DNA of 60,841 nt from Candidatus Hodarchaeota archaeon (lineage in GTDB: Archaea > Asgardarchaeota > Heimdallarchaeia > Hodarchaeales > Hodarchaeaceae): contig JAEOTQ010000155.1 in assembly GCA_016839785.1 (NCBI GenBank), forward strand, positions 1-60,841. The letters are read 5' to 3'. Shown in pieces: positions 28,267 through 44,251 of the stretch (the stretch's first letter is position 1; each line of letters starts with the position of its first letter). Both the position numbers and the translations under genes were made by a program. The notes under the pieces are model-generated. The model was given only the letters and a program-made list of their open reading frames with translations, did not search any database and was not told the DNA's origin.

Positions 28267-28542
28267 TTGAAAATCATGTCCAAGATACATCAACCAAACC
28301 TACGAAATATCAGATCAGAGTCTCCAAGCCTACAAGTAGGAAAGAATGGTTTATCTGATTCCTTCCTAATCGAACTCGATAACCGATTAAAAAAAGAAGG
28401 AACCGTGAAAATAAAATTTCTCAAAAATTCTCCTTACAGTTCACGTCAAGAAGCGATTTTAGCGTTGAAAGGGGTACTGAACAGTAAATTTGAATTGATA
28501 GAGACCCGAGGCTGGACTGCAACCTTACACAAGAAAAGTTAA
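28267..28542 (+). CDS. YhbY/CRM-domain RNA-binding protein
   Basis: PSLQVGKNGL...LKKEGTVKIKFLK...ETRGWTATL. Confidence 0.85.
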   Translation: MKIMSKIHQPNLRNIRSESPSLQVGKNGLSDSFLIELDNRLKKEGTVKIKFLKNSPYSSRQEAILALKGVLNSKFELIETRGWTATLHKKS

Positions 28543-29120
28543 CTATTCTGAGATGTTTTTGTCCCGTATAGTTGGATCATCAAAATTTCACGAGCCAGGG
28601 ATTGAAAAGCTCGTTTTATCCCAATTCCAGTCGTAGCCACAGTCTCATAAATCGGATACATGGATAATTCTAATTTTTCGACGAGTTGGGATCTTGGTAG
28701 TGCGTCTTCAATATCCCGTTTGTTCAATGTTATGACTAAAGGAATGGTGGTGCCTAAATCTTCTCCCAGACGAGTCTTAAGTTCCTCAAAAGATGATATA
28801 TTTTCCTGCATTTGATCTGGTGAAGAATCAACTACAAATAAAATACCATCTACTCCTTGAATTACAATTTTACGTTGGTGTTTATGCCGTTCCTGTCCCG
28901 CAGTGGTATAAACGTCGAAAACAACGCCAGTTGTGGCTTGCATCGGTGCAAAATCAAAGAAAAGGGTACGTCCGTGTGGATCGGCAAGTTGAGTGAATTT
29001 TCCTTTTTCTAATCCATCAACTTTATGATAGAGCCAACCAAGAGTCGTTGTCTTCCCACAGAGAGATGGGCCATAAAATACAATTTTAAATCTATGACGA
29101 CCTTCTGCGTCTTTTCGCAA
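28539..29120 (-). CDS. MglA-like small GTPase
   Basis: KIVFYGPSLCGKTT, GRTLFFDF, YTTAGQ, GVDGILFVVDS and NKRD. Confidence 0.92.
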   Translation of the reverse strand: MRKDAEGRHRFKIVFYGPSLCGKTTTLGWLYHKVDGLEKGKFTQLADPHGRTLFFDFAPMQATTGVVFDVYTTAGQERHKHQRKIVIQGVDGILFVVDSSPDQMQENISSFEELKTRLGEDLGTTIPLVITLNKRDIEDALPRSQLVEKLELSMYPIYETVATTGIGIKRAFQSLAREILMIQLYGTKTSQNS

Positions 29121-29162
29121 TCAATTTGACTCCTTTGTTAACTAGGAGGATAAGAGTTTGTA

Positions 29163-29657
29163 TTAGAATTTTTCAAGCTCTCGTAAAGCAGCTTCAAGTT
29201 CATCCTTCTCAAGCCCAGTACGAACTTCAGGTGATTTAGAAGGAGTTCCAGGTAAGGTTCGAGAGGGATGTCCAGCTAAAAACTCATCAAGAATTGAGCT
29301 AAGTTCTTCATTCGCTTTTCTCATAAGCAAGCGAATCATACCGATATTTACCTCTGCATCGGAAATAATTGTTAAAATTCCACGACCGCAGGCACTTGCA
29401 AATATTTTCCCAGTATCAAATTCTGAAGTAACAACATCCAATCCGCCAATTGTTAGATTAGATCCTTGTTCTGCTGAAGCCATAAAGACTGCTGAGGCAA
29501 TTGCGCCAATACCATCAACATCAACAGATACATAACTAAACTTGGAAACGTGCGCTATAGTTAGACCAGTACGGTCGACTAGAATAATTTTTCGAATTCC
29601 GGGTTCACTTTTAATGATTTTACTGAGTACACTGTCAAACCTTCGTGGATCTATCAA
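29163..29657 (-). CDS. Roadblock/MglB-like protein with C-terminal extension
   Basis: IILVDRTGLTIA...GAIASAVF...VNIGMIRL roadblock fold, Pro-rich linker, terminal helix LEKDELEAALRELEKF; directly upstream of the MglA-like gene. Confidence 0.9.
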   Translation of the reverse strand: MIDPRRFDSVLSKIIKSEPGIRKIILVDRTGLTIAHVSKFSYVSVDVDGIGAIASAVFMASAEQGSNLTIGGLDVVTSEFDTGKIFASACGRGILTIISDAEVNIGMIRLLMRKANEELSSILDEFLAGHPSRTLPGTPSKSPEVRTGLEKDELEAALRELEKF

Positions 29658-33806: not shown

Positions 33807-34147
33807 TAAGGGAATAAATTCGCTTAAACTGAATAAGTTAAGGGGAAATCTTGTTTGAATTATGAAGGGAAGGAGATCCGTATTTCAGGTGAGCGTGATG
33901 TAATAAATATCTATTTGTTGAGCATTCCGTTTTCTGTATTGAACAAAATCCTAGAACTAGTATGAAGATTGTAAAAAGACGAAGATAACAATAGATCTAT
34001 CTGAACACACCTAAATATAAAGCTTTAAAAGGTTTAAAATCGTCACAAATGTGAATAACGGATATTGACACTGTTAAACGATTGAGATCGAGTGTAATCA
34101 TTCCTAATCACTTATTTAAGAAAAAAATAATTTTGGTGACTCTTGCT

Positions 34148-35134
34148 ATGAGAGAAAAATACCAACATGCAAGTAATGCGCTAAATCAACTAAGTAATGC
34201 AGCTGCAATGAAAGCAAAACATATGTCAGATCTAGTAATAAAATCTTACACACAATTTGAAGAAATTAGGTATTTGAGCGAAACTGTACCTGATATCATA
34301 CTTTACTCTGACAATAAAATGGCCAATTTAAAGGAAAGCGGGGAAATTCGTGTTGCACAACTCCTAGCGGCTATTCTTTGTGATCAAATAACAGAACGAT
34401 CCAAAAAATTAGTCGAAGATCTTGAATTCGGTCATATGGAATTGGATCTTCGTACTGAACTGTTAGATATTCGTGAACAAATAACACGATTAGAAGAGGT
34501 AGTTCAGGTTCAAAATAAATTGGCTAATGGGGCTCCAGTGTCAACAGAGGGAATGAAAAATTTGCAGAAAAAATATGATTCTCGCATCCAGCAATTGGAA
34601 CGAGAGTTACTCCGGGAAGAAGGACGCACACTTACAGTAACCGCCTTAGATGCAACAAAAAAGCCAAAGATATTTGGTAAAGGAAAATTTGTTGACAATC
34701 TTGCTGATTTAGTTCTTGAACAAGGGAAATCTCTTCGAGCGAGTTCAGGTGGTTATATTTCAATGGCAAATTTATATACTTCCTTAAAAAATCAAATTCC
34801 AGACATTAAATTCTCATTGAAAGATTTAGAAAAGGCCTGTAAGCAGCTAACTAAACAGTCACTAATCGAAGGTGTTTCTACCCAGTCTGGGGTTAAGATT
34901 GTTGAGTTTACTCCCGTTTCTCTTGGAAAGGATGCCCGGAATATATTTAATCTTGCAATCGAAAAAGGCTTTGTAACATTTGAGGAAGTAATGATACAAA
35001 CAAAGTGGGACCAACAACGAGTTAAAAGGGTCTTAGATAGTCTTGTTGGTCAAAAAATTGCTCGAAAAGTATCATCACTCGATTCAGGTGATCAATATTA
35101 CTTCCCAGGGCTATATGGAGATGAAGATTGGTAG
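34148..35134 (+). CDS. ESCRT-II Vps22/Vps36 (EAP30)-like protein with N-terminal coiled coil
   Basis: Tandem winged helices SSGGYISMANLY...SLKDLEKACKQL and GFVTFEEV...KWDQQRVKRVLDSLV...YYFPGL, matching the EAP30/Vps36 C-terminus. ATG at 34148 preferred. Confidence 0.8.
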   Translation: MREKYQHASNALNQLSNAAAMKAKHMSDLVIKSYTQFEEIRYLSETVPDIILYSDNKMANLKESGEIRVAQLLAAILCDQITERSKKLVEDLEFGHMELDLRTELLDIREQITRLEEVVQVQNKLANGAPVSTEGMKNLQKKYDSRIQQLERELLREEGRTLTVTALDATKKPKIFGKGKFVDNLADLVLEQGKSLRASSGGYISMANLYTSLKNQIPDIKFSLKDLEKACKQLTKQSLIEGVSTQSGVKIVEFTPVSLGKDARNIFNLAIEKGFVTFEEVMIQTKWDQQRVKRVLDSLVGQKIARKVSSLDSGDQYYFPGLYGDEDW

Positions 35135-35143
35135 GTAAAATCG

Positions 35144-36040
35144 ATGGCGGAAACAGATAAATTTGGTGGATTATTCCGTAAAATAGGGGACACAATACAC
35201 ATAGGTGCCAAGAAATTCAAAGGCAAAGCAATACTAAGTTCAAAATTTGAAGAGTCATCAGGAGAATCATTAATCCATAGGGTAAAAGCAGAAGAAAATG
35301 ATAATTTTAGAAAAATTGATGGCTTTATTGTAAAAGAACCAGAAAATGCGGTATTATTACAGTCAGGAGTGTTAATTGGAGTGGCTGGGAGCGGAATATA
35401 CCAACTAGAAAAATCTGCAAAGCATCCAGGTAGCGAAATAATATGGGTTACAAAACGCGAATTTATCATCAAATGGGGAACCCCTGGTATATACACCTCA
35501 GATAACGTTATGGTGGGATGTTGGGGAATTTCTCGAATGCGAATTGTTAATCCACGAAATTTCATTATGAATGTAGTCTCCCATAAACAGTACTATAGTG
35601 GAAATGAGTTAAAAAATTGGGTTAAACAAACGATTATTGCAGCAGTCAAACATGTTATGACTCGGTACACTGTTCCAGAATTGTTAAAAGAAAGGAGAAG
35701 CCTAGAAATACAAACAAGATCTGAATTAGGGCCTGAAAGCTCACGATGGGGTTTGGAGCTAGTAGGTTTAGATATTGGTGGATTCAAAGTACCTGAAGAA
35801 TATGAGACCTTACTAACATATGAAATAGAGAAGCAGATTATTGAAACTCGGCAAGAGCTTGCAGAAGAGCGAAATCAATTAGACGAGGTTTCAGAAAAAA
35901 TTAAGAAATTCGAATTAATGCTCGAACAGGCTGATGAGATGTTTCTTGCTGGTAAAATTTCGGAAAAACGGTATAAAGAACTAACAGACAAGTATTCATC
36001 AAAACTAGCAAAATTAAAAGCCCAAGAAACTCCCTTATAG
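35144..36040 (+). CDS. SPFH/Band-7 domain protein with C-terminal coiled coil/SHOCT-like end
   Basis: FIVKEPENAVLLQSG...IKWGT...RIVNPRNF...RWGLELVGLDI..KVPEE; ends AGKISEKRYKEL. Confidence 0.8.
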   Translation: MAETDKFGGLFRKIGDTIHIGAKKFKGKAILSSKFEESSGESLIHRVKAEENDNFRKIDGFIVKEPENAVLLQSGVLIGVAGSGIYQLEKSAKHPGSEIIWVTKREFIIKWGTPGIYTSDNVMVGCWGISRMRIVNPRNFIMNVVSHKQYYSGNELKNWVKQTIIAAVKHVMTRYTVPELLKERRSLEIQTRSELGPESSRWGLELVGLDIGGFKVPEEYETLLTYEIEKQIIETRQELAEERNQLDEVSEKIKKFELMLEQADEMFLAGKISEKRYKELTDKYSSKLAKLKAQETPL

Positions 36041-36045
36041 TTTAT

Positions 36046-37806
36046 TTATTCGTTATACTCAAGGGAAGATCCACATTCTGGGCAATCAATCATTCCAACT
36101 GATTCCATTCCTTGATAACAATTTACACATACTTCTGCTTTACATGAATTACAGATTAACTTCTTCTGATCTGTTTTAACCCAATTACAAACCGCACATT
36201 CGAAAGAAACAAAATCCCTTTTGATAATCAACTGCATTTTTCTTATGTTGATAGATCCTGATATAATTTTATGAGTGATGAGTTTTTCTAATATTGCTAT
36301 AACCCTGTCCGAGGATTGATTACTGAAATCAATTATCTGCTGAAGAGTGAATATTGTTGAATGATTGTTTCGAATAAAGTCCACCAATTGGCTTTCAATC
36401 GAACTAAGACTTATGGTTCTCTCTCCTGGAGAGTACCATCCCGATTTCAATGGGCCCTGTTCACAGAAATAACACTCCTCAGTTGTTTCAAGATTGTACG
36501 AATAAGCGTAAGTTAACCTGCAGTTGGGACAGTTCCGTGGTAGATCGATAATAAATGCCGAAATATTCCCACAAAACGGACATTCGTGGGTACTATCTAC
36601 ATTTCTACAGTTAGAGCACATCACTCTCCTACAGTTTTGACATTCAAAATAAATGGATGGATTGGAATATGAGGAGGTATCTATTTGGCAAAATATTTCT
36701 AAATCTTTTATTCCTTTTACTAGAAAAGGATTAATTGAATCCCCAGCAATAATGCGTAGTTCTAAACGATCTGCTATGATTTGAATTACTTTTAACAGGT
36801 TTAAAACATTTAAGTGTAATTTTGATGCCAATCCCTCAATATCAATTCCCTGTTTGAACCAGTCAATCAAAGTTCTTCCTTTAAATGTTTTTTCTGATAA
36901 TTCACCTTTAAAGCTTTCATTCAGTAGTAATAATAGGTTGTAGAGATCATCAAACGCAAGATCAAACCTTGCCTGCCAGAAATCCAAAGGAATCTCTTGA
37001 TAAACATAAATATCCCATATGATTTGTGATACGATATCAATAGTAGAATAGATATAATTATTATCCTTAGATTGGATATAGCTTAAACCTTTTCCAATAG
37101 ATTCAAGGATTATCAATACATCATCAATTGATAGATTGGTAAGCCTAGAAATATTAACTAAGGAAACTTCAGAAGAGATTTGGAAGGAAGCATTTATGAA
37201 TCGGGTTAAATATCTAATTGATCCTTCATTCGGGGAAGAATAGGAGAGATGAATATACTTAAAGTTATAAATTCGTTGCTTGATAGGATCAATATAACCT
37301 CGGAACAAATTTTTGTCAGCTAATAAGTCTAATACAGCTTCTAGCTGGTCATCTGTCCAGTAAATCTGATTTAACAAGTATTCAAGATCGTGAGTAGGAG
37401 ACGTACCGAGTAATTTAGCAATGAATGATATTGCACCAGAACGAGTGAAAAATCTTCGTTTTATTAGATCAAAAAATCCATCAATTTTTTGGACATATTC
37501 ATGGATAATAGATTCAAGTAATTTTCCAGGAATATTCAAAAGATCAATTAAATCGCATATATCAACAACTCCCTGTGTATCTAAGAAATGTTGAATTTTT
37601 CTGTAAACATGAGAATTTGGTATGAAATAATTGTGGTTATAATCTAAAACACCTTTTAATTCTTGGTGTTGAATTTTCTCATGTATAAAGGCGATTACAT
37701 TCATTTTATCGGTTTTTGAAGAAAATTCCTCAATCCGTATAGGTGATTGTGCCGTCGAGACTGCTTCAAACCATTTTGTTTTTTTGCGTCTTAACATCTT
37801 GCACAA
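36046..37806 (-). CDS. Winged-helix-repeat (UFL1/PCI-like) protein with two RING-like Cys clusters; candidate E3 ligase
   Basis: Repeated WH units (GVVDICDL..LNIP, FRGYIDP, ISGSINIR); internal CQID...CQNC-x4-CSNC...CPFC and CPNC...CYFC; C-terminal C-x2-C-x11-C-x2-C-x4-C-x2-C-x11-C-x2-C. Confidence 0.7.
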   Translation of the reverse strand: MCKMLRRKKTKWFEAVSTAQSPIRIEEFSSKTDKMNVIAFIHEKIQHQELKGVLDYNHNYFIPNSHVYRKIQHFLDTQGVVDICDLIDLLNIPGKLLESIIHEYVQKIDGFFDLIKRRFFTRSGAISFIAKLLGTSPTHDLEYLLNQIYWTDDQLEAVLDLLADKNLFRGYIDPIKQRIYNFKYIHLSYSSPNEGSIRYLTRFINASFQISSEVSLVNISRLTNLSIDDVLIILESIGKGLSYIQSKDNNYIYSTIDIVSQIIWDIYVYQEIPLDFWQARFDLAFDDLYNLLLLLNESFKGELSEKTFKGRTLIDWFKQGIDIEGLASKLHLNVLNLLKVIQIIADRLELRIIAGDSINPFLVKGIKDLEIFCQIDTSSYSNPSIYFECQNCRRVMCSNCRNVDSTHECPFCGNISAFIIDLPRNCPNCRLTYAYSYNLETTEECYFCEQGPLKSGWYSPGERTISLSSIESQLVDFIRNNHSTIFTLQQIIDFSNQSSDRVIAILEKLITHKIISGSINIRKMQLIIKRDFVSFECAVCNWVKTDQKKLICNSCKAEVCVNCYQGMESVGMIDCPECGSSLEYNE

Positions 37807-37942: not shown

Positions 37943-38290
37943 GTGAGATGTTCCCACGTGAAAGAATCCAACTTTAGATGCCAATTTTGTGGATACGTTC
38001 CTCACTCACATGAACAACCTGGTACAGGTGTTTGGTATTGCCCTAAATGTGGAAAAAGAACAACAATTCGATTAACTGTACCTTCACCTAGGAAATCCAG
38101 TTACAAAAAGCCCCAATCTCGTCAAGCTTCTCGTGATCAAATTTCTAGCCAAATTTACAGGGAACTCACAAAAGAAAAGAGTCAAGAATATGGGCTAAAA
38201 GAACCTTATCTCAATCCAACCATTCAACCAATAAAACCAAAACTCAGAAAAAAGGTACGCATTTTCGCTCCCTCTAAAGATAACGATTAA
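37943..38290 (+). CDS. Small basic zinc-ribbon protein
   Basis: CQFCG...WYCPKCG followed by a basic, probably disordered tail. Confidence 0.6.
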   Translation: MRCSHVKESNFRCQFCGYVPHSHEQPGTGVWYCPKCGKRTTIRLTVPSPRKSSYKKPQSRQASRDQISSQIYRELTKEKSQEYGLKEPYLNPTIQPIKPKLRKKVRIFAPSKDND

Positions 38291-39537
38291 CCCTTTTTTG
38301 TTTTAAACCTGATTATTACTCTCTTTTCTTCATCATCAGTAAGTGAACTCGCAGTTAATCTATCTCCATCTTGAAGAACATTTTTCACTAAAGCTTCATT
38401 CGGAATGATAAAATTTCCTCTAAAACCTATGTAGTTTTTCTTGAATTTACGTTTTAAAACGGTGAAAATCGTCCTACATTTTGAATTTGGATTTATATTA
38501 ATGGTTACTGGGGTTTGCTGAAAAATTGATGTATCGCCGCACACCATACAATCTGGATCTCTAAATAATTCAAAAGAACTTATATTTCCTGTCAAAGCTG
38601 AATAAATTGTTAAATCAGGAACTCTAAAACGATATGTTTGGACTAGAGATTTCATTCGATTTTGATCCTTTTTCTTTAAATCCTTCATTTTATTAAAAAA
38701 CAGGGTTTTTATAATTTCTTGTGATTGAATTCCACTTGTTACTGCATTAACAGTGATTAGGCTAGGTACACGGTATAATACACTCTGAATTATATCTTTA
38801 TTATCAAATATTGGGAATTGGTGTTTCGCCGCTAACTTATTTGCTAGATCTGTTAGTTTTTGGATATCATCGGAGGAATTTTCATCAGGTTCACGATCAT
38901 TAAGTGTATGAAATTCATATAGAGCTTTCCATGCGCAATGGTCTCTCGTTCTTGGAGTTCCAACAAGGGTACATGGTGCAGATAGAACACGTGTCTCCTC
39001 CGGAGGTGGTGGTGAATCACATGCCAAACAGGCGTTATTACTTGGATTAACACTTTGTACTTGACCAAAATATCCATCAGTTGCTGAATCTATTAGCGAT
39101 AAAGGTAATTCTACAGCTGTTTCATTGATATATTGACGTGCCAAAAAATTATCCACACAACCAGCAATAATATCAGAATCCTCAAAAATTTTAAAAGGTA
39201 ATGATTGAATAGGTTCATTATATGCCTCAATTTCTAAAGAAGAATTATAACGACTCTTAATTACCTTCTTGGCGACCTTGGCTTTATTTTTTCCAATATC
39301 CGTTTTCGAAAATAGTAATTGTCGATTTAGATTCGAATATTCAATCGTGTCCATATCAACTAAAATTAACTTTCCGACTCCAAGCAAGGCTAAGTTTTTA
39401 GCTACTTCTCCCCCAGTTCCTCCTATTCCTATTATTATTACGCTGCTTTTCTCGATTAGGCTTTGATCCCATATTGTGAGACGTTCTTGTCGATCAAATT
39501 TCGATGTAGGATGTGAGTTCATTGAGAATTCCGTCAA
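38287..39537 (-). CDS. Ubiquitin-like activating enzyme E1 (UBA3-like, single chain)
   Basis: GIGGTG, DMDTIEYSNLNRQLLF, CVDNFLARQYIN, Zn pairs CLAC/CMVC, catalytic PCTLVGTPRTRDHC, C-terminal ubiquitin-fold-like domain. Confidence 0.92.
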   Translation of the reverse strand: MTEFSMNSHPTSKFDRQERLTIWDQSLIEKSSVIIIGIGGTGGEVAKNLALLGVGKLILVDMDTIEYSNLNRQLLFSKTDIGKNKAKVAKKVIKSRYNSSLEIEAYNEPIQSLPFKIFEDSDIIAGCVDNFLARQYINETAVELPLSLIDSATDGYFGQVQSVNPSNNACLACDSPPPPEETRVLSAPCTLVGTPRTRDHCAWKALYEFHTLNDREPDENSSDDIQKLTDLANKLAAKHQFPIFDNKDIIQSVLYRVPSLITVNAVTSGIQSQEIIKTLFFNKMKDLKKKDQNRMKSLVQTYRFRVPDLTIYSALTGNISSFELFRDPDCMVCGDTSIFQQTPVTININPNSKCRTIFTVLKRKFKKNYIGFRGNFIIPNEALVKNVLQDGDRLTASSLTDDEEKRVIIRFKTKKG

Positions 39538-39557
39538 TGAGAAGAGAATGGAGGAGA

Positions 39558-39887
39558 TTACCCCCCTTTTATCTGATCAGGTACTATCATTAAAAGGGCA
39601 TTTTCTTCAATATTGTACGAAACAAGGTTGTTTGATGGATTCATTCTTCGACCTTTAAACAATAGTGCGATTGGTACAACTTCAGGAATATTAAATGCAT
39701 CACGCGCGGCTGTAATTGCTTGAAAAACCGTACCATTAATGTTAATATACTTTTCACGAATATTTTGATCTGGTGGAAGTTGTGGGTCCTTAAAACGGAC
39801 TTTTATCATACGTTCAATACCATCAGATGTTGATCCTTGAGAACTGATATTAGAGTCCCAGACAACATCTTTTTTTCGATTATTCAT
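39558..39887 (-). CDS. Ubiquitin-like modifier ending in Gly-Gly
   Basis: Beta-grasp pattern IKVRFK...LLFKGRRM...LVSYNIEENALLMIV with free C-terminal KGG; directly upstream of the E1. Confidence 0.9.
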   Translation of the reverse strand: MNNRKKDVVWDSNISSQGSTSDGIERMIKVRFKDPQLPPDQNIREKYININGTVFQAITAARDAFNIPEVVPIALLFKGRRMNPSNNLVSYNIEENALLMIVPDQIKGG

Positions 39888-39909
39888 TTATTTTCACCTT
39901 TGATTGTCT

Positions 39910-40701
39910 CTACACATAGAATAAACGTTCAATTTCGGCCAAAACTGCAATAAGATCAATACGGCCTTTTGCATAATCCTCTAAAGGCCCTCGTATAAGT
40001 GGATACCTAGAAAGAACTTCACTTTCAAGACCGATCGGATAATTCTTTTTTCTCTTAATTGTAAATGGGATTATTTCCCCTGTTTGTGCATAAAAGTTAA
40101 TTTTAATTTCCTTTTTTGTTGGTATAGCATCGTAGCTATCCAGAATCTGTCGTATAAGGGGATCTTTTTCTTTAACCGCGTCTCTTGTCTCAGCTAAAGT
40201 CTGGCTAGTCTCTAACTTTTGGGGTATTTGATCTTCAGTTTTTTGGTAGATCTCTTCTAATACATCTAATACCGAGCTTGTGCCTGGTGACCAATTTTTC
40301 ATTGTATTTAAGTCACTGATCTCACAATTGATGACTTCTCGAAGAACATTTGGTCCATCGATAAATGGTTTCTCTGGTAAATCATCGAGTACGATTAATA
40401 AAGGAAAGGCATACTGTCCAACTTGCATTTTTATACGAATTTTTCCTACCTCATCCCCTACTAATTCTCCAGGAAAATTTTCAAGTATTTTCTGGGATTC
40501 CTGAAATAATAGGTAATAGTGTTCAGATTCCACTTCCTCGTCAGCTGAACTTTCATCGGGAGTTATACCCTGTGATTTCTTAAGATAATTTGTCAATTCA
40601 CAATATTCACAATGAATGGGACGAATAGAAGAGGGTTTTCCTGATAAGGGAGCACCACATCCATTACACTGAGCAACATCTGTCTCGATATCGTTCATCA
40701 T
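39910..40701 (-). CDS. Zinc ribbon fused to an inactive E2-like (UEV/RWD) domain
   Basis: CNGCGAPL...CEYC; FPLLIVLDDLPEKPFI...LNTMKNWSPGTSSVLDVLEEI resembles the UBC/UEV core without HPN or the catalytic Cys. Confidence 0.6.
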   Translation of the reverse strand: MMNDIETDVAQCNGCGAPLSGKPSSIRPIHCEYCELTNYLKKSQGITPDESSADEEVESEHYYLLFQESQKILENFPGELVGDEVGKIRIKMQVGQYAFPLLIVLDDLPEKPFIDGPNVLREVINCEISDLNTMKNWSPGTSSVLDVLEEIYQKTEDQIPQKLETSQTLAETRDAVKEKDPLIRQILDSYDAIPTKKEIKINFYAQTGEIIPFTIKRKKNYPIGLESEVLSRYPLIRGPLEDYAKGRIDLIAVLAEIERLFYV

Positions 40702-41018: not shown

Positions 41019-41564
41019 ATGTCTGATCTACATTCCAGACGATTAAGGGAAGAATTTAAGCGAATGCTCAAGATTTATCCCCCGAAAAGTGCTACCATAA
41101 AGTGGTTGATAGTGAATAATGATCTTCATCATTATTCTGCAACAATAAAAGGGAGAGAAGGCACTCCGTATGAAAATGGGGAATGGAAAATCACTATTGA
41201 TCTCCCACCAGAATATCCCTTTAAACCTCCAATTGTTAATTTTATCACACCAATTTGGCATCCCAATATTGCTGTTGGGGAAACCCGTTGGAAATGGGGT
41301 TCTAATGTCTGCTTAAGTCTAATAAATTGGAATAATATTGGGGAACTTGGTGGTTGGAAAAAGACTATAACTCTACCTAGTGTTTTTGAGCATATTGAAA
41401 TGATGCTTGATGTTTATCAAAGTTCAGGTGATTCTGATTTTCCAGAATATCTTGTTGATCCTGGGGATCCATTCAATCCAGAGGCTGGTAAGTCGATGCA
41501 GTCAAACTTTAATGATTTCTGGAAGAAAGCTGTGGAGTGGACAAAAAAACATAGTATGAATTAA
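41019..41564 (+). CDS. Ubiquitin-conjugating enzyme E2
   Basis: RRLREEF, GTPYENG, PPEYPFKPP.V.F.TPIWHPNI, active-site NVCLSLI and DPFNPEA. Confidence 0.95.
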   Translation: MSDLHSRRLREEFKRMLKIYPPKSATIKWLIVNNDLHHYSATIKGREGTPYENGEWKITIDLPPEYPFKPPIVNFITPIWHPNIAVGETRWKWGSNVCLSLINWNNIGELGGWKKTITLPSVFEHIEMMLDVYQSSGDSDFPEYLVDPGDPFNPEAGKSMQSNFNDFWKKAVEWTKKHSMN

Positions 41565-41660: not shown

Positions 41661-42239
41661 ATGACAAAGAAACATTCCCAAGATAATGTTGATGGTGAGG
41701 AGGGAAAAAAGAATTCATTTGATGGCCAAGATCCCAGTCTTACTAGCAATGAAATAATACAATTAAAATTAGAGACAAAATCTGTTACTATTTTACAGCA
41801 AGCAATCCAGGAAATTACGAATTTCTCTATCAAATCAATGCCAAAAGAGGCGATTGGATTACTAAGTGGGAGAGAAATACGTCCAAAAGAATTAATGATA
41901 ACAAAGGGGATTTATGTTACTGAAGGGGAAGAATACTCTGTATCCTTTTCTGAGGACGATTTTCAAGTATTTGATCAATTAGCTGGACCTGAATATTGTG
42001 TGGGATGGTGGCATTCCCATCCTGGATTTGGACTATTTTTATCTCAGACTGATATCACTACTCATATTTTCTCTTTTCAAATTGTACATCGTTTATCAGT
42101 GGCACTGGTAGTTGATCCCATTGCTGTAGGAATAGATGGAATCGCTAAACATAAATTTTTCCAAGTCGTAGGCGACTCTCAGAACAATTCATTCCGATAT
42201 GTAGAACTAGCCAGTTATCTTGATAAATCTTCAGAGTAA
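41661..42239 (+). CDS. JAMM/MPN+ isopeptidase (Rpn11/CSN5-like)
   Basis: EAIGLL...VGWWHSHPGFGLFLSQTD...ALVVDP, a complete JAMM motif. Confidence 0.93.
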   Translation: MTKKHSQDNVDGEEGKKNSFDGQDPSLTSNEIIQLKLETKSVTILQQAIQEITNFSIKSMPKEAIGLLSGREIRPKELMITKGIYVTEGEEYSVSFSEDDFQVFDQLAGPEYCVGWWHSHPGFGLFLSQTDITTHIFSFQIVHRLSVALVVDPIAVGIDGIAKHKFFQVVGDSQNNSFRYVELASYLDKSSE

Positions 42240-42313: not shown

Positions 42314-43108
42314 TTGAGATTCAAAATGACAATATACGATCCTTTTACAAAACTCTTTCTCATCATTGGACAATTCTTCTTACAATCTGAGCAATACGGG
42401 ATTCTAGATTATTTAATTATATTTTTAGGACCAGGACTCGTATTATTTTTCACATTTTATCTGTTATGGGCTGGTAGGAGGAAGAATCACAAAATAATTA
42501 ACGTAACAAAGGATGCTCTTCTTGAAATTTTCTCAAATGAATTTGATGATTTTGTAACGGATCAATTAAGTTCCAATGGTGGACTACTATTTCCAAAGTA
42601 TAAAAAATCCTCTAAAATTCCATTTAAAGATTTTCGCGTTGTGTTTGCATTGGAAGAACGTCATTTAATGTTATCTGTGATTATCTCATGGTTTTCAGGT
42701 TCAAATGACTACATTGCTATAGAAGGAAATGCAAAAAAAGGGAAATTACCAACTAAGATACAAATCATCCCCAACAATGAGGAAGGACAGATTAAAAAAC
42801 ATCAAGATGTGCTTTTTCAATTAAAAGATATAACACTCGATGTAGAACGACTTGATAATTTCTTTCTATTGAAAGCTACATCTGAACGCATGGGGAATTA
42901 TTTTCTTAAAGATAAGTCATTATTAAAACAAATTTACTCCATTCGGGAATTTTTAGTCAGACTCTCTATCGATTCGTCAGAAGATCCTTCAATTCGAGTT
43001 TATTGTAGAATAAATAAGAAGCTAGACTTAGTAAAGATACATCGATTATTTCTAACCTTAACCGAACGAGTAAATTTAGTCTCAGAAAAAAAGGTCATGA
43101 AGAAATAA
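42314..43108 (+). CDS. Single-TM protein resembling CCDC47 (PAT complex subunit, DUF1682)
   Basis: TM helix followed by GRRKNHKI...F..EF and ALEERHLMLSVI.....ND.I.I, comparable to remembered CCDC47 segments GKNKNSRLA...LESNF and FLKRQDLLNVL....SDQVQI. Confidence 0.6.
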   Translation: MRFKMTIYDPFTKLFLIIGQFFLQSEQYGILDYLIIFLGPGLVLFFTFYLLWAGRRKNHKIINVTKDALLEIFSNEFDDFVTDQLSSNGGLLFPKYKKSSKIPFKDFRVVFALEERHLMLSVIISWFSGSNDYIAIEGNAKKGKLPTKIQIIPNNEEGQIKKHQDVLFQLKDITLDVERLDNFFLLKATSERMGNYFLKDKSLLKQIYSIREFLVRLSIDSSEDPSIRVYCRINKKLDLVKIHRLFLTLTERVNLVSEKKVMKK

Positions 43109-43126: not shown

Positions 43127-43690
43127 CTATAGAGTCTCAATTTTTTCAGTGACTCTTTGTCGTAGCCATTCTAATCCTTCTTCAACATTGAATCCAGTCT
43201 TAGCTGAAGTAGGTACAATTGCATATGAATGGGTCGTTACTTTGTGAAGATTAAGGGATCGTGCAACTTCACCTGCAGAAGCAGCATTTTCTAGATCTTG
43301 CTTGTTTGCTAATACCAAAATTGGAATGTTTTCCACCTTATCGTTATTTAAGACGTATTTCCATAATTCAGCTTGAGCTTCATCAAAACGAGTTCTATCG
43401 TTTGAATCAATCACATAAACTATTCCCATTGAACCAGCCATATAACTCTCCCAAAGAGATTCACGAAAGGCTTCTTGGCCACCAATATCCCAAGATATGA
43501 ACCGCACATTACCAGAACTGAACTCATCAACATTCATACCTAGTGTACGAAATGTACTATCATCAAATTCCCCAGAGGTTATTCTTTTGACAATCGTAGT
43601 CTTGCCTGCATGGTCAAGTCCTAACCAGGCTATCTTCACTGTTAGTCGTTCTCTAGCAAGCCTCGCGCGTAGTTTGGTAAGGAAACTCAT
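43127..43690 (-). CDS. Arf-family small GTPase
   Basis: GLDHAGKTT, TLGMN, WDIGGQ, ANKQDL and TSAKTG; N-terminal amphipathic helix. Confidence 0.93.
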   Translation of the reverse strand: MSFLTKLRARLARERLTVKIAWLGLDHAGKTTIVKRITSGEFDDSTFRTLGMNVDEFSSGNVRFISWDIGGQEAFRESLWESYMAGSMGIVYVIDSNDRTRFDEAQAELWKYVLNNDKVENIPILVLANKQDLENAASAGEVARSLNLHKVTTHSYAIVPTSAKTGFNVEEGLEWLRQRVTEKIETL

Positions 43691-43702
43691 TGAAGATACC
43701 TC

Positions 43703-44251
43703 TTATTTTCTTTGTGTCAATTTACTCTGAAATCTCTCGCTCATCCATTGCCAGGGCTCCTCAACACCTTCTCCAGTAAGAGCTGAACATGGATAAACCC
43801 CAAATGTTCTTGGACGTTCTGCCATTTCAGTTTCCAGCTCAAGGGTTTTAACTATATTATCTAAAGACATAGCAACATCTAAATCTTGCTTGTTTGCCAA
43901 AAATAAAAATGCCGAATCCTCTGGCGCCCATTGAATAACGTTCTTAAGCCATTTAGCTGCAGTTTCTACTTTGTCTCTATCAGCTGAGTCGAAAACAAAA
44001 ACCACTCCCGATGCTTCTGAAACAAAAGGTTCCCAAAGACTAGTAGGATAGGTAGGTTGTCCACCTAAATCTACAGCCATAACCTCAAAATCACCAATCT
44101 TTAGCGTTTCAATATTCATACCCATTGTAGGGACAGTTTCTAAATCTTCATGTCCCTTTAGTCTTTTTACTAATGTTGTTTTTCCAGCATTAGCCAGACC
44201 GACAAAGGCTATTTGATTTTCAATTTCTCGACCAAATAATTTTGTTGGCAT
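43703..44251 (-). CDS. Arf-family small GTPase
   Basis: GLANAGKTT, PTMGMN, DLGGQ, ANKQDL and CSALTGEG. Confidence 0.93.
   Translation of the reverse strand: MPTKLFGREIENQIAFVGLANAGKTTLVKRLKGHEDLETVPTMGMNIETLKIGDFEVMAVDLGGQPTYPTSLWEPFVSEASGVVFVFDSADRDKVETAAKWLKNVIQWAPEDSAFLFLANKQDLDVAMSLDNIVKTLELETEMAERPRTFGVYPCSALTGEGVEEPWQWMSERFQSKLTQRK

Follow-up and report, generated by a model that had tools for sequence, protein, structure and literature searches.

A ubiquitin-like modifier that ends in a free Gly-Gly, and its probable conjugation cascade, in a Hodarchaeales archaeon

The modifier gene and its product

The window analysed here is a 60,841-nt stretch of DNA from Candidatus Hodarchaeota archaeon (contig JAEOTQ010000155.1), and its subject is a small gene on the reverse strand that encodes a 109-residue ubiquitin-like protein (UBL) amid genes for ubiquitin-type conjugation enzymes. 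The gene is real and strongly conserved, and its product is probably the modifier of a second, lineage-specific ubiquitin-type conjugation cascade of Hodarchaeales-like Asgard archaea. The features of the gene are as follows.

39558..39887, reverse strand: UBL modifier open reading frame, 109 aa (ATG start, homologues, AlphaFold model, fold searches)
39558-39572, reverse strand: UBL tail I-K-G-G and stop codon
39573-39809, reverse strand: UBL beta-grasp core, residues 27-105 (predicted structure)
39810-39887, reverse strand: UBL N-terminal tail, residues 1-26, with a conserved K-K-D-V-x-W-D motif
39894-39899, reverse strand: Shine-Dalgarno sequence AGGTGA, 6 nt 5' of the ATG of the long form (read from the sequence)

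A preliminary description of this DNA had placed a ubiquitin-like gene here, with a disordered N-terminal extension and a free Gly-Gly end, and the frame is as described: it opens with ATG, runs for 109 aa and contains every string that was quoted from it. The extension is borne out by an AlphaFold2 model built on the family alignment, in which the N-terminal ~26 residues are predicted to be disordered (predicted local distance difference test, pLDDT, of 51 and 46 in the first two 10-residue blocks) and residues 27-105 form a confident beta-grasp (pLDDT 94-95) with strands at 27-33, 43-49, 73-77 and 98-103 and helices at 54-65 and 88-91. So is the free end, as the frame closes with ...IVPDQIKGG and TAA directly after the second Gly. 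In the tail, the motif [SN]-[KR]-K-D-V-[VI]-W-D-[SN] or a close variant is present in the UBL frame in 22 of 22 rows (the window and 21 related loci), followed by a variable linker rich in Ser, Thr, Lys and Pro. An ATG lies just 5' of the motif in most of these rows and is missing from that place in four. Because the motif is kept in the UBL frame across all 22 rows, we take the long form to be the one that is translated.

Homologues and distribution

Searching 5.8 billion proteins yielded 35 homologues, all at E ≤ 1.2e-30 and with 55-97% identity, which are called “hypothetical protein” or “ubiquitin-like protein” where a name is given; 23 of the 35 carry a precomputed PF11976 assignment. Source labels point to Hodarchaeales/Hodarchaeota for eight of them and to Heimdall-, Thor- and Odinarchaeota for one each. 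The alignment of the resulting 36 sequences has 34 invariant columns, including K33-D34-P35-Q36, P38 and G79. Of the last nine residues only Q105 varies, and G108 and G109 are both fixed. The protein ends exactly at the Gly-Gly in 31 of the 36 and continues for 1-3 residues in the other five; more distant members have tails of 1-7 residues after it.

A family-profile search of 1.84 billion cluster representatives returned 252 proteins at E ≤ 1e-3. Besides the family representative (P0033), the short single-stretch matches were P0036, P0037, P0042 and P0044, which belong to the family, and P0118, an ordinary ubiquitin-family protein according to Pfam. The remaining matches among the 150 listed are long multi-stretch proteins, and all seven that were sampled are polyubiquitins. 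P0044 (124 aa) combines the C-terminal half of the UBL family with a match to Sigma-70 region 2 and is likely a chimera or a mis-called gene.

The family was found in 23 of 400 Asgard genomes: the window's own, 20 of the 21 others of its genus, one of two in the sister family, and a distant genome (G119). Identity of the UBL is 76-96% across 20 of 21 full-length related loci and 57% at the remaining one (L035), against 51-81% for the neighbouring activating enzyme and 42-77% for the ligase candidate introduced below. In one public “chromosome” record the cassette is split (L021 and L036), with a full UBL lacking the activating enzyme at one place and, at the end of the record, a C-terminal UBL fragment with the activating enzyme, the small Zn-ribbon protein and the ligase candidate, which is probably an assembly join. 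We found no description of the family or cassette in the literature on Asgard UFM1, archaeal UFL1/RING proteins, Hodarchaeales ubiquitin or archaeal CCDC47, with the limit that the supplements of PMC12962969 (one file) and of bioRxiv preprints may list the protein.

The cassette, its gene order and its transcripts

Eight genes make up the cassette, the UBL gene and the seven below.

36046..37806, reverse strand: probable ligase (E3), 586 aa, with a UFL1-like winged-helix N-terminus, a Cys-rich middle, a PCI-type winged helix and a C-terminal eight-Cys RING-like (C4C4) finger
37943..38290, forward strand: small Zn-ribbon protein Zn115, 115 aa, convergent with the E1 gene (weak Zn-ribbon Pfam matches)
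38287..39537, reverse strand: activating enzyme (E1), 416 aa, 20 nt 3' of the UBL (Pfam ThiF, 2.4e-51)
39910..40701, reverse strand: Zn-ribbon, UEV/E2-like and RWD-like protein ZnR263, 263 aa, ending 22 nt 5' of the UBL
41019..41564, forward strand: conjugating enzyme (E2) of the UBC fold, 181 aa, divergently encoded (Pfam UQ_con, 2e-24; HPN...Cys present)
41661..42239, forward strand: JAMM/MPN metalloprotease, 192 aa (Pfam JAB, 3.2e-9; Prok-JAB, 8.7e-7)
42314..43108, forward strand: single-pass membrane protein, 264 aa, weakly CCDC47-like (Pfam, protein atlas)

ZnR263, the UBL and the E1 share one strand with tight spacing (22 and 20 nt), and the E2 and JAMM genes lie on the other. All eight genes are present at 15 of the 22 related loci; six of the other seven are cut by the end of a contig or record, and one is a diverged locus. 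Wherever the DNA extends far enough, the UBL is followed by the E1, both at the related loci and in two distant genomes. One of these, G119, encodes a tail-less 89-aa UBL ending in ...GG, followed by a co-directional E1, an orthologous E2 and a fusion of a Zn ribbon with JAMM, all on one contig; the other, G078, encodes ZnR263, a UBL that runs on for seven residues past the Gly-Gly, and the E1. Coming from two distant lineages, these loci give support to the linkage of the UBL and its enzymes that is independent of the genus. The JAMM fusion of G119 (L047, 2217-2978) carries its Zn ribbon at the N-terminus, with a lysine-rich linker.

Short contigs from sediment metatranscriptomes of two studies differ from the window in 0 to 1 letters over 39512-40069 (X1) and 39675-40027 (X4). 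They span the junction of ZnR263 and UBL, which is compatible with their co-transcription. Over the E1 the RNA-library contigs reach only 39138-39376, and the uncovered part proves nothing.

Similarity to ubiquitin and SUMO rather than to UFM1

The preliminary description had further called the UBL a mosaic of UFM1-like, ubiquitin-like and SUMO-like traits, chiefly on the strength of short strings recalling UFM1. The ubiquitin-like and SUMO-like parts stood up. The best Pfam match of the window's UBL is Rad60-SLD (6.7e-5, 23.1 bits, cut-off 23.8), followed by ubiquitin (1.6e-3, 18.6 bits, cut-off 25.4), and both models match 36 of 36 family members at E ≤ 10, with a best Rad60-SLD value of 2.4e-7. 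Alignment of the UBL family with 48 distinct ubiquitin units in hhalign gave 91.5% probability (E 8.5e-7, 59 columns), so that the likeness of the C-terminal half to ubiquitin is above chance. With the family profile, the 60 best PDB matches listed are all ubiquitin-type chains (E 0.0073 for the best monomer), and none of these is UFM1. The protein atlas likewise led to Rad60-SLD and ubiquitin clusters only. At the top of the Foldseek search of the PDB were ubiquitin, SUMO1/2, the Caldiarchaeum ubiquitin, ISG15, NEDD8, FAT10 and the Rad60 SLD2 domain (E 9e-7 to 7e-6; SUMO1 and SUMO2 chains 2e-6 to 7e-6). Rows of the fold searches within one Z unit of each other are tied, and therefore no single eukaryotic family is preferred. 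UFM1 was not among the 49, 50 and 50 rows listed by three fold searches, which do not exclude a family that they leave unlisted.

The UFM1 strings fared differently. In a phmmer search of the PDB with the whole UBL, single ubiquitins matched residues 73-103 at E 0.16-0.66, and chain 1j0g_A, which we take to be mouse UFM1 (it is listed beside named UFM1 chains in the PDB matches of the Asgard fusion domain discussed below), matched residues 21-104 at E 0.67 (13.3 bits). The strings are thus not above chance: residues 21-72, in which three of the four lie, had no UFM1 match in the PDB at E ≤ 10 and a single unrelated one, and UFM1 similarity of the N-terminal half was rejected on that ground. 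The Pfam model Ufm1 (PF03671) matched none of the 36 family members and nothing in the window's own genome at E ≤ 10.

Of 400 Asgard genomes, 29 have a match to UFC1 (PF08694), which passes the cut-off in 18; none of the 21 other genomes of the window's genus has one. Four other Asgard genomes encode fusions of a UBL domain with UFC1 (258-273 aa), in which a linker follows the single Gly that closes the N-terminal UBL domain.

L037, 1462-2283: UBL-UFC1 fusion
L038, 977-1753: UBL-UFC1 fusion
L040, 1162-1980: UBL-UFC1 fusion
L043, 1195-2010: UBL-UFC1 fusion

At L037, the sole fusion locus whose neighbours were scanned, the fusion lies with a short 278-aa ThiF-type E1 and a JAB protease. Ufm1 homologues found by structure have been reported from nine Asgard clades (PMC12962969, 2026), and one UFM1 structural match in the supplement of that paper is a Lokiarchaeial protein whose residues 4-90 are assigned to UFM1 and 101-265 to UFC1; the fusions found here are probably these published “Ufm1” homologues. 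An alignment of their N-terminal domains had UFM1 chains as eight of 24 PDB matches, at E 0.6-1.7 only. Used as a stand-in for a eukaryotic UFM1 profile, this Asgard Ufm1-like domain reached 0.65% against the UBL family in hhalign. Like the window's UBL, the fusions are of Asgard origin and have a beta-grasp modifier domain encoded beside an E1 and a JAB protease; unlike it, they carry that domain fused to UFC1, with a single Gly before the linker and a short E1, and they occur in other Asgard families.

The Pfam negative is weak on its own, because the same model misses the four fusions (no match at E ≤ 0.1); in the 400 Asgard genomes it had no match above its cut-off and ten weak ones, seven of which lie inside open frames of 277-918 aa. 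The model being this insensitive, it is the hhalign and structure results that carry the argument against UFM1. Since no comparison (Pfam, PDB sequence and profile, hhalign, three fold searches) favoured UFM1 over other beta-grasp families, the preferential similarity that the preliminary description would have needed was not seen. The modifier is not UFM1-like beyond the shared fold.

That the UBL might still be an archaeal UFM1 orthologue, or the proposed mosaic, ligated by its UFL1-like 586-aa neighbour, has that neighbour in its favour, along with the near full-length alignment to 1j0g_A and the low power of the sequence tests, which the missed fusions illustrate. Against it stand the comparisons above together with the Gly-Gly end, an E1 and E2 that are not of the UBA5 and UFC1 types (see below), and matches at noise level only for Peptidase_C78 and DDRGK in the window's own genome (84.5% completeness). 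We consider it very unlikely.

Activating enzyme, conjugating enzyme and protease

The E1 and E2 encoded beside the UBL are by sequence ubiquitin-type rather than UBA5/UFC1-type. In a phmmer search of the PDB the E1 was nearest to UBA1 (3.3e-34), SAE2 (1.5e-30) and UBA3 (3.5e-25), with ThiF (6.7e-21), MoeB and UBA5 (3.7e-17) well behind and with 122 bits for UBA1 against 66 for UBA5. The sequence has GxGxxG and two CxxC pairs, and ThiF and E1_4HB are the only Pfam families found in it. For the E2, the PDB matches were UBC1, UBE2D2 and UBE2T at ~2e-16, with no UFC1 among the 60 best listed. The protease has an intact H-S-H-P...S-Q-T-D motif, which corresponds to what we take to be the JAMM signature, H-x-H...S-x-x-D.

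A SUMO orthologue or functional analogue, its N-terminal tail used for chains, would agree with Rad60-SLD as the best Pfam family of the UBL, with the SUMO chains in the top Foldseek rows, with SAE2 as the second-best E1 match and with the two lysines in the disordered tail. The fold scores of ubiquitin, SUMO, NEDD8 and ISG15 are, however, tied within error, and the distant member in G119 has no such tail. The enzymes also depart from the SUMO set of a heterodimeric E1, a Ubc9-type E2 and an Ulp protease: a single E1 gene takes the place of two subunits, the best E2 matches are UBC1, UBE2D (UBE2D2) and UBE2T, and the protease of the cassette is JAMM rather than Ulp-type, although no genome-wide Ulp search was made. 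A SUMO-type modifier is thus quite unlikely.

Sulfur carriers (SAMP, Urm1, MoaD, ThiS) work with an E1 and no E2, often with a rhodanese domain, and have no RING or UBC partner; archaeal SAMPs serve both as sulfur carriers and as protein tags. The UBL could on this pattern be thiocarboxylated mainly for tRNA thiolation or cofactor synthesis, with tagging secondary, and the E1 does belong to the ThiF family and matches ThiF, MoeB and Uba4 (6.7e-21 to 1e-8). Ubiquitin-type E1s of eukaryotes, though, outscore ThiF and MoeB by a wide margin, the UBL is encoded alongside a UBC E2 that has its cysteine, a JAMM protease and a RING-like protein, and the fold-search rows listed contain no MoaD or ThiS chain. 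Such a role is very improbable.

A ligase candidate with UFL1-like domains

The one genuine link to the UFM1 pathway is the neighbouring UFL1-like ligase candidate, not the modifier. The 586-aa protein matches Pfam E3_UFM1_ligase at 2.5e-4 (21.2 bits, cut-off 23.2), as do eight of 17 orthologues (best 3.7e-5), and ten of the 17 match PCI; with its profile, the top four PDB matches are UFL1 (1.3e-6 to 1e-4). Residues 530-585 hold eight invariant Cys and weakly match the RING domains of MAT1, UHRF1, TRIM32, NOT4 and BRE1 at E 0.04-0.8. The UFL1-like N-terminus is fused to this RING-like finger, and what ties the protein to the modifier is synteny within the genus. All 21 other genomes of the genus encode it in full length; proteins of ~800 aa in other Asgard families match its UFL1-like N-terminus only. 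UFL1 domains have been reported in unusual Asgard fusions (10.1101/2020.10.19.343400).

Two further observations concern longer proteins. The window's genome encodes a 791-aa protein on another contig (L051, 4070-6445, G000 contig C14) that weakly matches E3_UFM1_ligase twice (E 0.155 and 0.855) and may be a long UFL1-like paralogue. Elsewhere in the genus there are open frames of 775-803 aa with a match to the candidate's PCI/RING end.

A second cascade in the same genome

Another contig of the genome encodes a separate and complete cascade, so that at least two parallel ubiquitin-type pathways are present.

G000 contig C163, locus L049, 6789-11078 (also contig C17, L001): two tandem UBLs, E1 of 412 aa, E2 of 175 aa, JAMM protease of 270 aa, and a 370-aa multi-pass membrane protein with a C-terminal RING-like finger, all co-directional

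The set of enzymes is the same as in the window's cassette. The C163 genes are co-directional, unlike those of the window, and their RING protein is anchored in the membrane and lacks UFL1-like domains. The E1s of the two cascades are 39% identical (1e-68) and the E2s 28% (2e-24), whereas the modifiers barely align (26% over 34 residues, E 1e-3); the two C163 UBLs have acidic N-terminal tails and end in ...STAGWN and ...STAG.

Comparison with known systems

The ubiquitin operon of Caldiarchaeum subterraneum combines Ub, E1, E2, a RING protein and an Rpn11-like JAMM (PMC6043591). The window's modifier, E1, E2, JAMM and RING-type protein are encoded together in the same way, with the RING assignment weak. 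Differences from that operon are that the modifier of the window's family mostly needs no processing and has a conserved N-terminal tail, that the genes lie on two strands, that UFL1-like winged-helix domains are joined to the RING-like finger, that ZnR263, with its Zn ribbon and UEV/RWD domains, and the CCDC47-like membrane protein are added, and that the cassette is a second cascade in its genome.

With ubiquitin, NEDD8, SUMO and ISG15 the UBL has the beta-grasp and the Gly-Gly end in common, and Leu76, Gly79 and Val102 align with Ile44, Gly47 and Val70 of ubiquitin. It is only 9-24% identical to these eukaryotic proteins in structural alignments, and its long beta1-beta2 loop with an invariant DPQLPP is unlike theirs. 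Arg80 replaces Lys48 of ubiquitin, and seven residues (PDQIKGG) follow Val102, against six in the 76-residue ubiquitin. To the UFM1 system (UFM1, UBA5, UFC1, UFL1, DDRGK1, UFSP) the likeness is the UFL1-like protein two genes from the UBL; the modifier, E1, E2 and protease all differ from it in being ubiquitin-type.

Other genes of the cassette and its surroundings

In ZnR263 a Zn ribbon is combined with two domains that resemble the E2-like folds of FANCL, one UEV/E2/RWD-like (residues 53-166) and the other RWD-like; by sequence the protein matched no PDB or Pfam family. Its near-invariant Cys126 might lie at the position of an E2-like active site, in a degenerate context, and the protein could be a second atypical E2 or a receptor for the UBL. 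A complex prediction weakly favoured its pairing with the UBL (score 0.50 against 0.13 for the best of three controls; runs 0.12, 0.59 and 0.50; contact agreement at least 58%; partner pLDDT at least 74). The mark applied is reached by 116 of 157 solved complexes and two of 215 mismatched pairs, and it is reached at a score of 0.60 or less by 18 of the 157 and by both passing mismatches. Because solved complexes of E2 or UEV proteins with ubiquitin may give a pass by likeness, we do not build on this prediction. It is nevertheless what would favour the UBL as a non-conjugated adaptor that only binds partners such as this UEV-like neighbour, against which stand the terminal Gly-Gly, the (nearly) invariant last nine residues in 36 sequences and the E1 that always lies 3' of the UBL wherever the DNA extends that far. 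We regard that role as extremely unlikely.

The membrane protein had no PDB match by sequence and DDRGK was matched in the genome at noise level only, and likeness to DDRGK1 was dropped. Eleven of 15 orthologues match Pfam CCDC47, all below the cut-off (best E 3.4e-4), with one alignment covering residues 45-266 against profile positions 10-263, and the atlas gave a lead of 0.83 to a CCDC47 cluster. Its family is wider than that of the UBL (36 of 396 Asgard genomes) and includes a paralogue in many genomes; in the window's own this is the following.

G000:C45:21282-21773: paralogue of the membrane protein

CCDC47 belongs to the PAT complex, which acts at the translocon, as one of its subunits. 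It has been placed at the ribosome exit tunnel of the translocon of the endoplasmic reticulum (PMC7505659). Zn115 finds a counterpart by blastp (E ≤ 1e-5, 39-79% identity) at 18 of the 22 related loci. Flanking the cassette (34082-36040, forward strand; 43127-44251, reverse; 28539-29657, reverse) are further genes of the eukaryote-signature kind, for an EAP30/Vps36-family (ESCRT-II-like) protein with an SPFH/Band 7 protein, two Arf-family GTPases, and a Roadblock/LC7 protein beside a small GTPase.

Proposed pathway

In the cascade that we consider probable, the UBL would be ready as made, because it ends at Gly-Gly and so needs no trimming. The adjacent E1 would adenylate Gly109 and take the UBL onto its own cysteine, and from there the UBL would move to that of the UBC-type E2, whose gene is divergent. 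Ligation to substrate lysines would follow, most likely aided by the 586-aa protein, whose RING-like finger may bind the E2 and whose UFL1-like winged-helix domains may bind the target. JAMM would remove the UBL, and in relatives that encode 1-7 extra residues after the Gly-Gly it would trim these as well. The DPQLPP loop, the Leu76/Gly79/Val102 surface and the PDQIKGG tail probably set this UBL apart from the other ubiquitin-like cascade of the genome.

This proposal starts from observed properties, namely the fold, the free Gly-Gly end, the family, the enzyme families, their intact catalytic motifs and the gene order; several points weigh against it. We infer every biochemical step, the role of the E3 candidate and the substrates. 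The window's UBL lies below both Pfam gathering cut-offs (23.1 against 23.8 bits; 18.6 against 25.4), and the RING matches of the E3 candidate are weak (E 0.04-0.8). The candidate is on another contig in the sister genus, its match in G078 is partial and on a different contig, and it is not on the 6.9-kb contig of G119. Collinearity across the genus extends to the whole region, ThrRS and eIF2-alpha included, and therefore synteny within the genus, which we rejected as functional evidence, says little on the E3 candidate, Zn115 and the membrane protein. Lastly, the RNA-library contigs may derive from carried-over DNA.

A more far-reaching interpretation is that the cassette represents a precursor of UFMylation, or an analogue of it, built from ubiquitin-type parts. 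In it a UFL1-like winged-helix scaffold, still joined to a RING finger, would work with an ordinary UBC E2 and a Gly-Gly modifier and, with the CCDC47-like protein, would tag membrane-bound ribosomes or translocon clients. We hold it to be speculative and rather doubtful; if true, it would reveal the role of UFL1 before UFM1 and UFC1 existed.

Implications

Returning to the lineage-specific cascade, the UBL ends in ...K-G-G, and trypsin should therefore leave a ubiquitin-type Gly-Gly remnant on substrate lysines, so that standard di-Gly proteomics could reveal its targets in cultured relatives. The part most worth attention is the ligase candidate that joins UFL1-like domains to a RING-like finger. 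The order to which the window belongs has been called the proposed sister lineage of the eukaryotes (PMC12077186). Asgard ubiquitin systems were already known; here a whole cascade would have been duplicated and specialised inside a Hodarchaeales lineage, the same kind of step as the one that gave eukaryotes ubiquitin, NEDD8 and SUMO.

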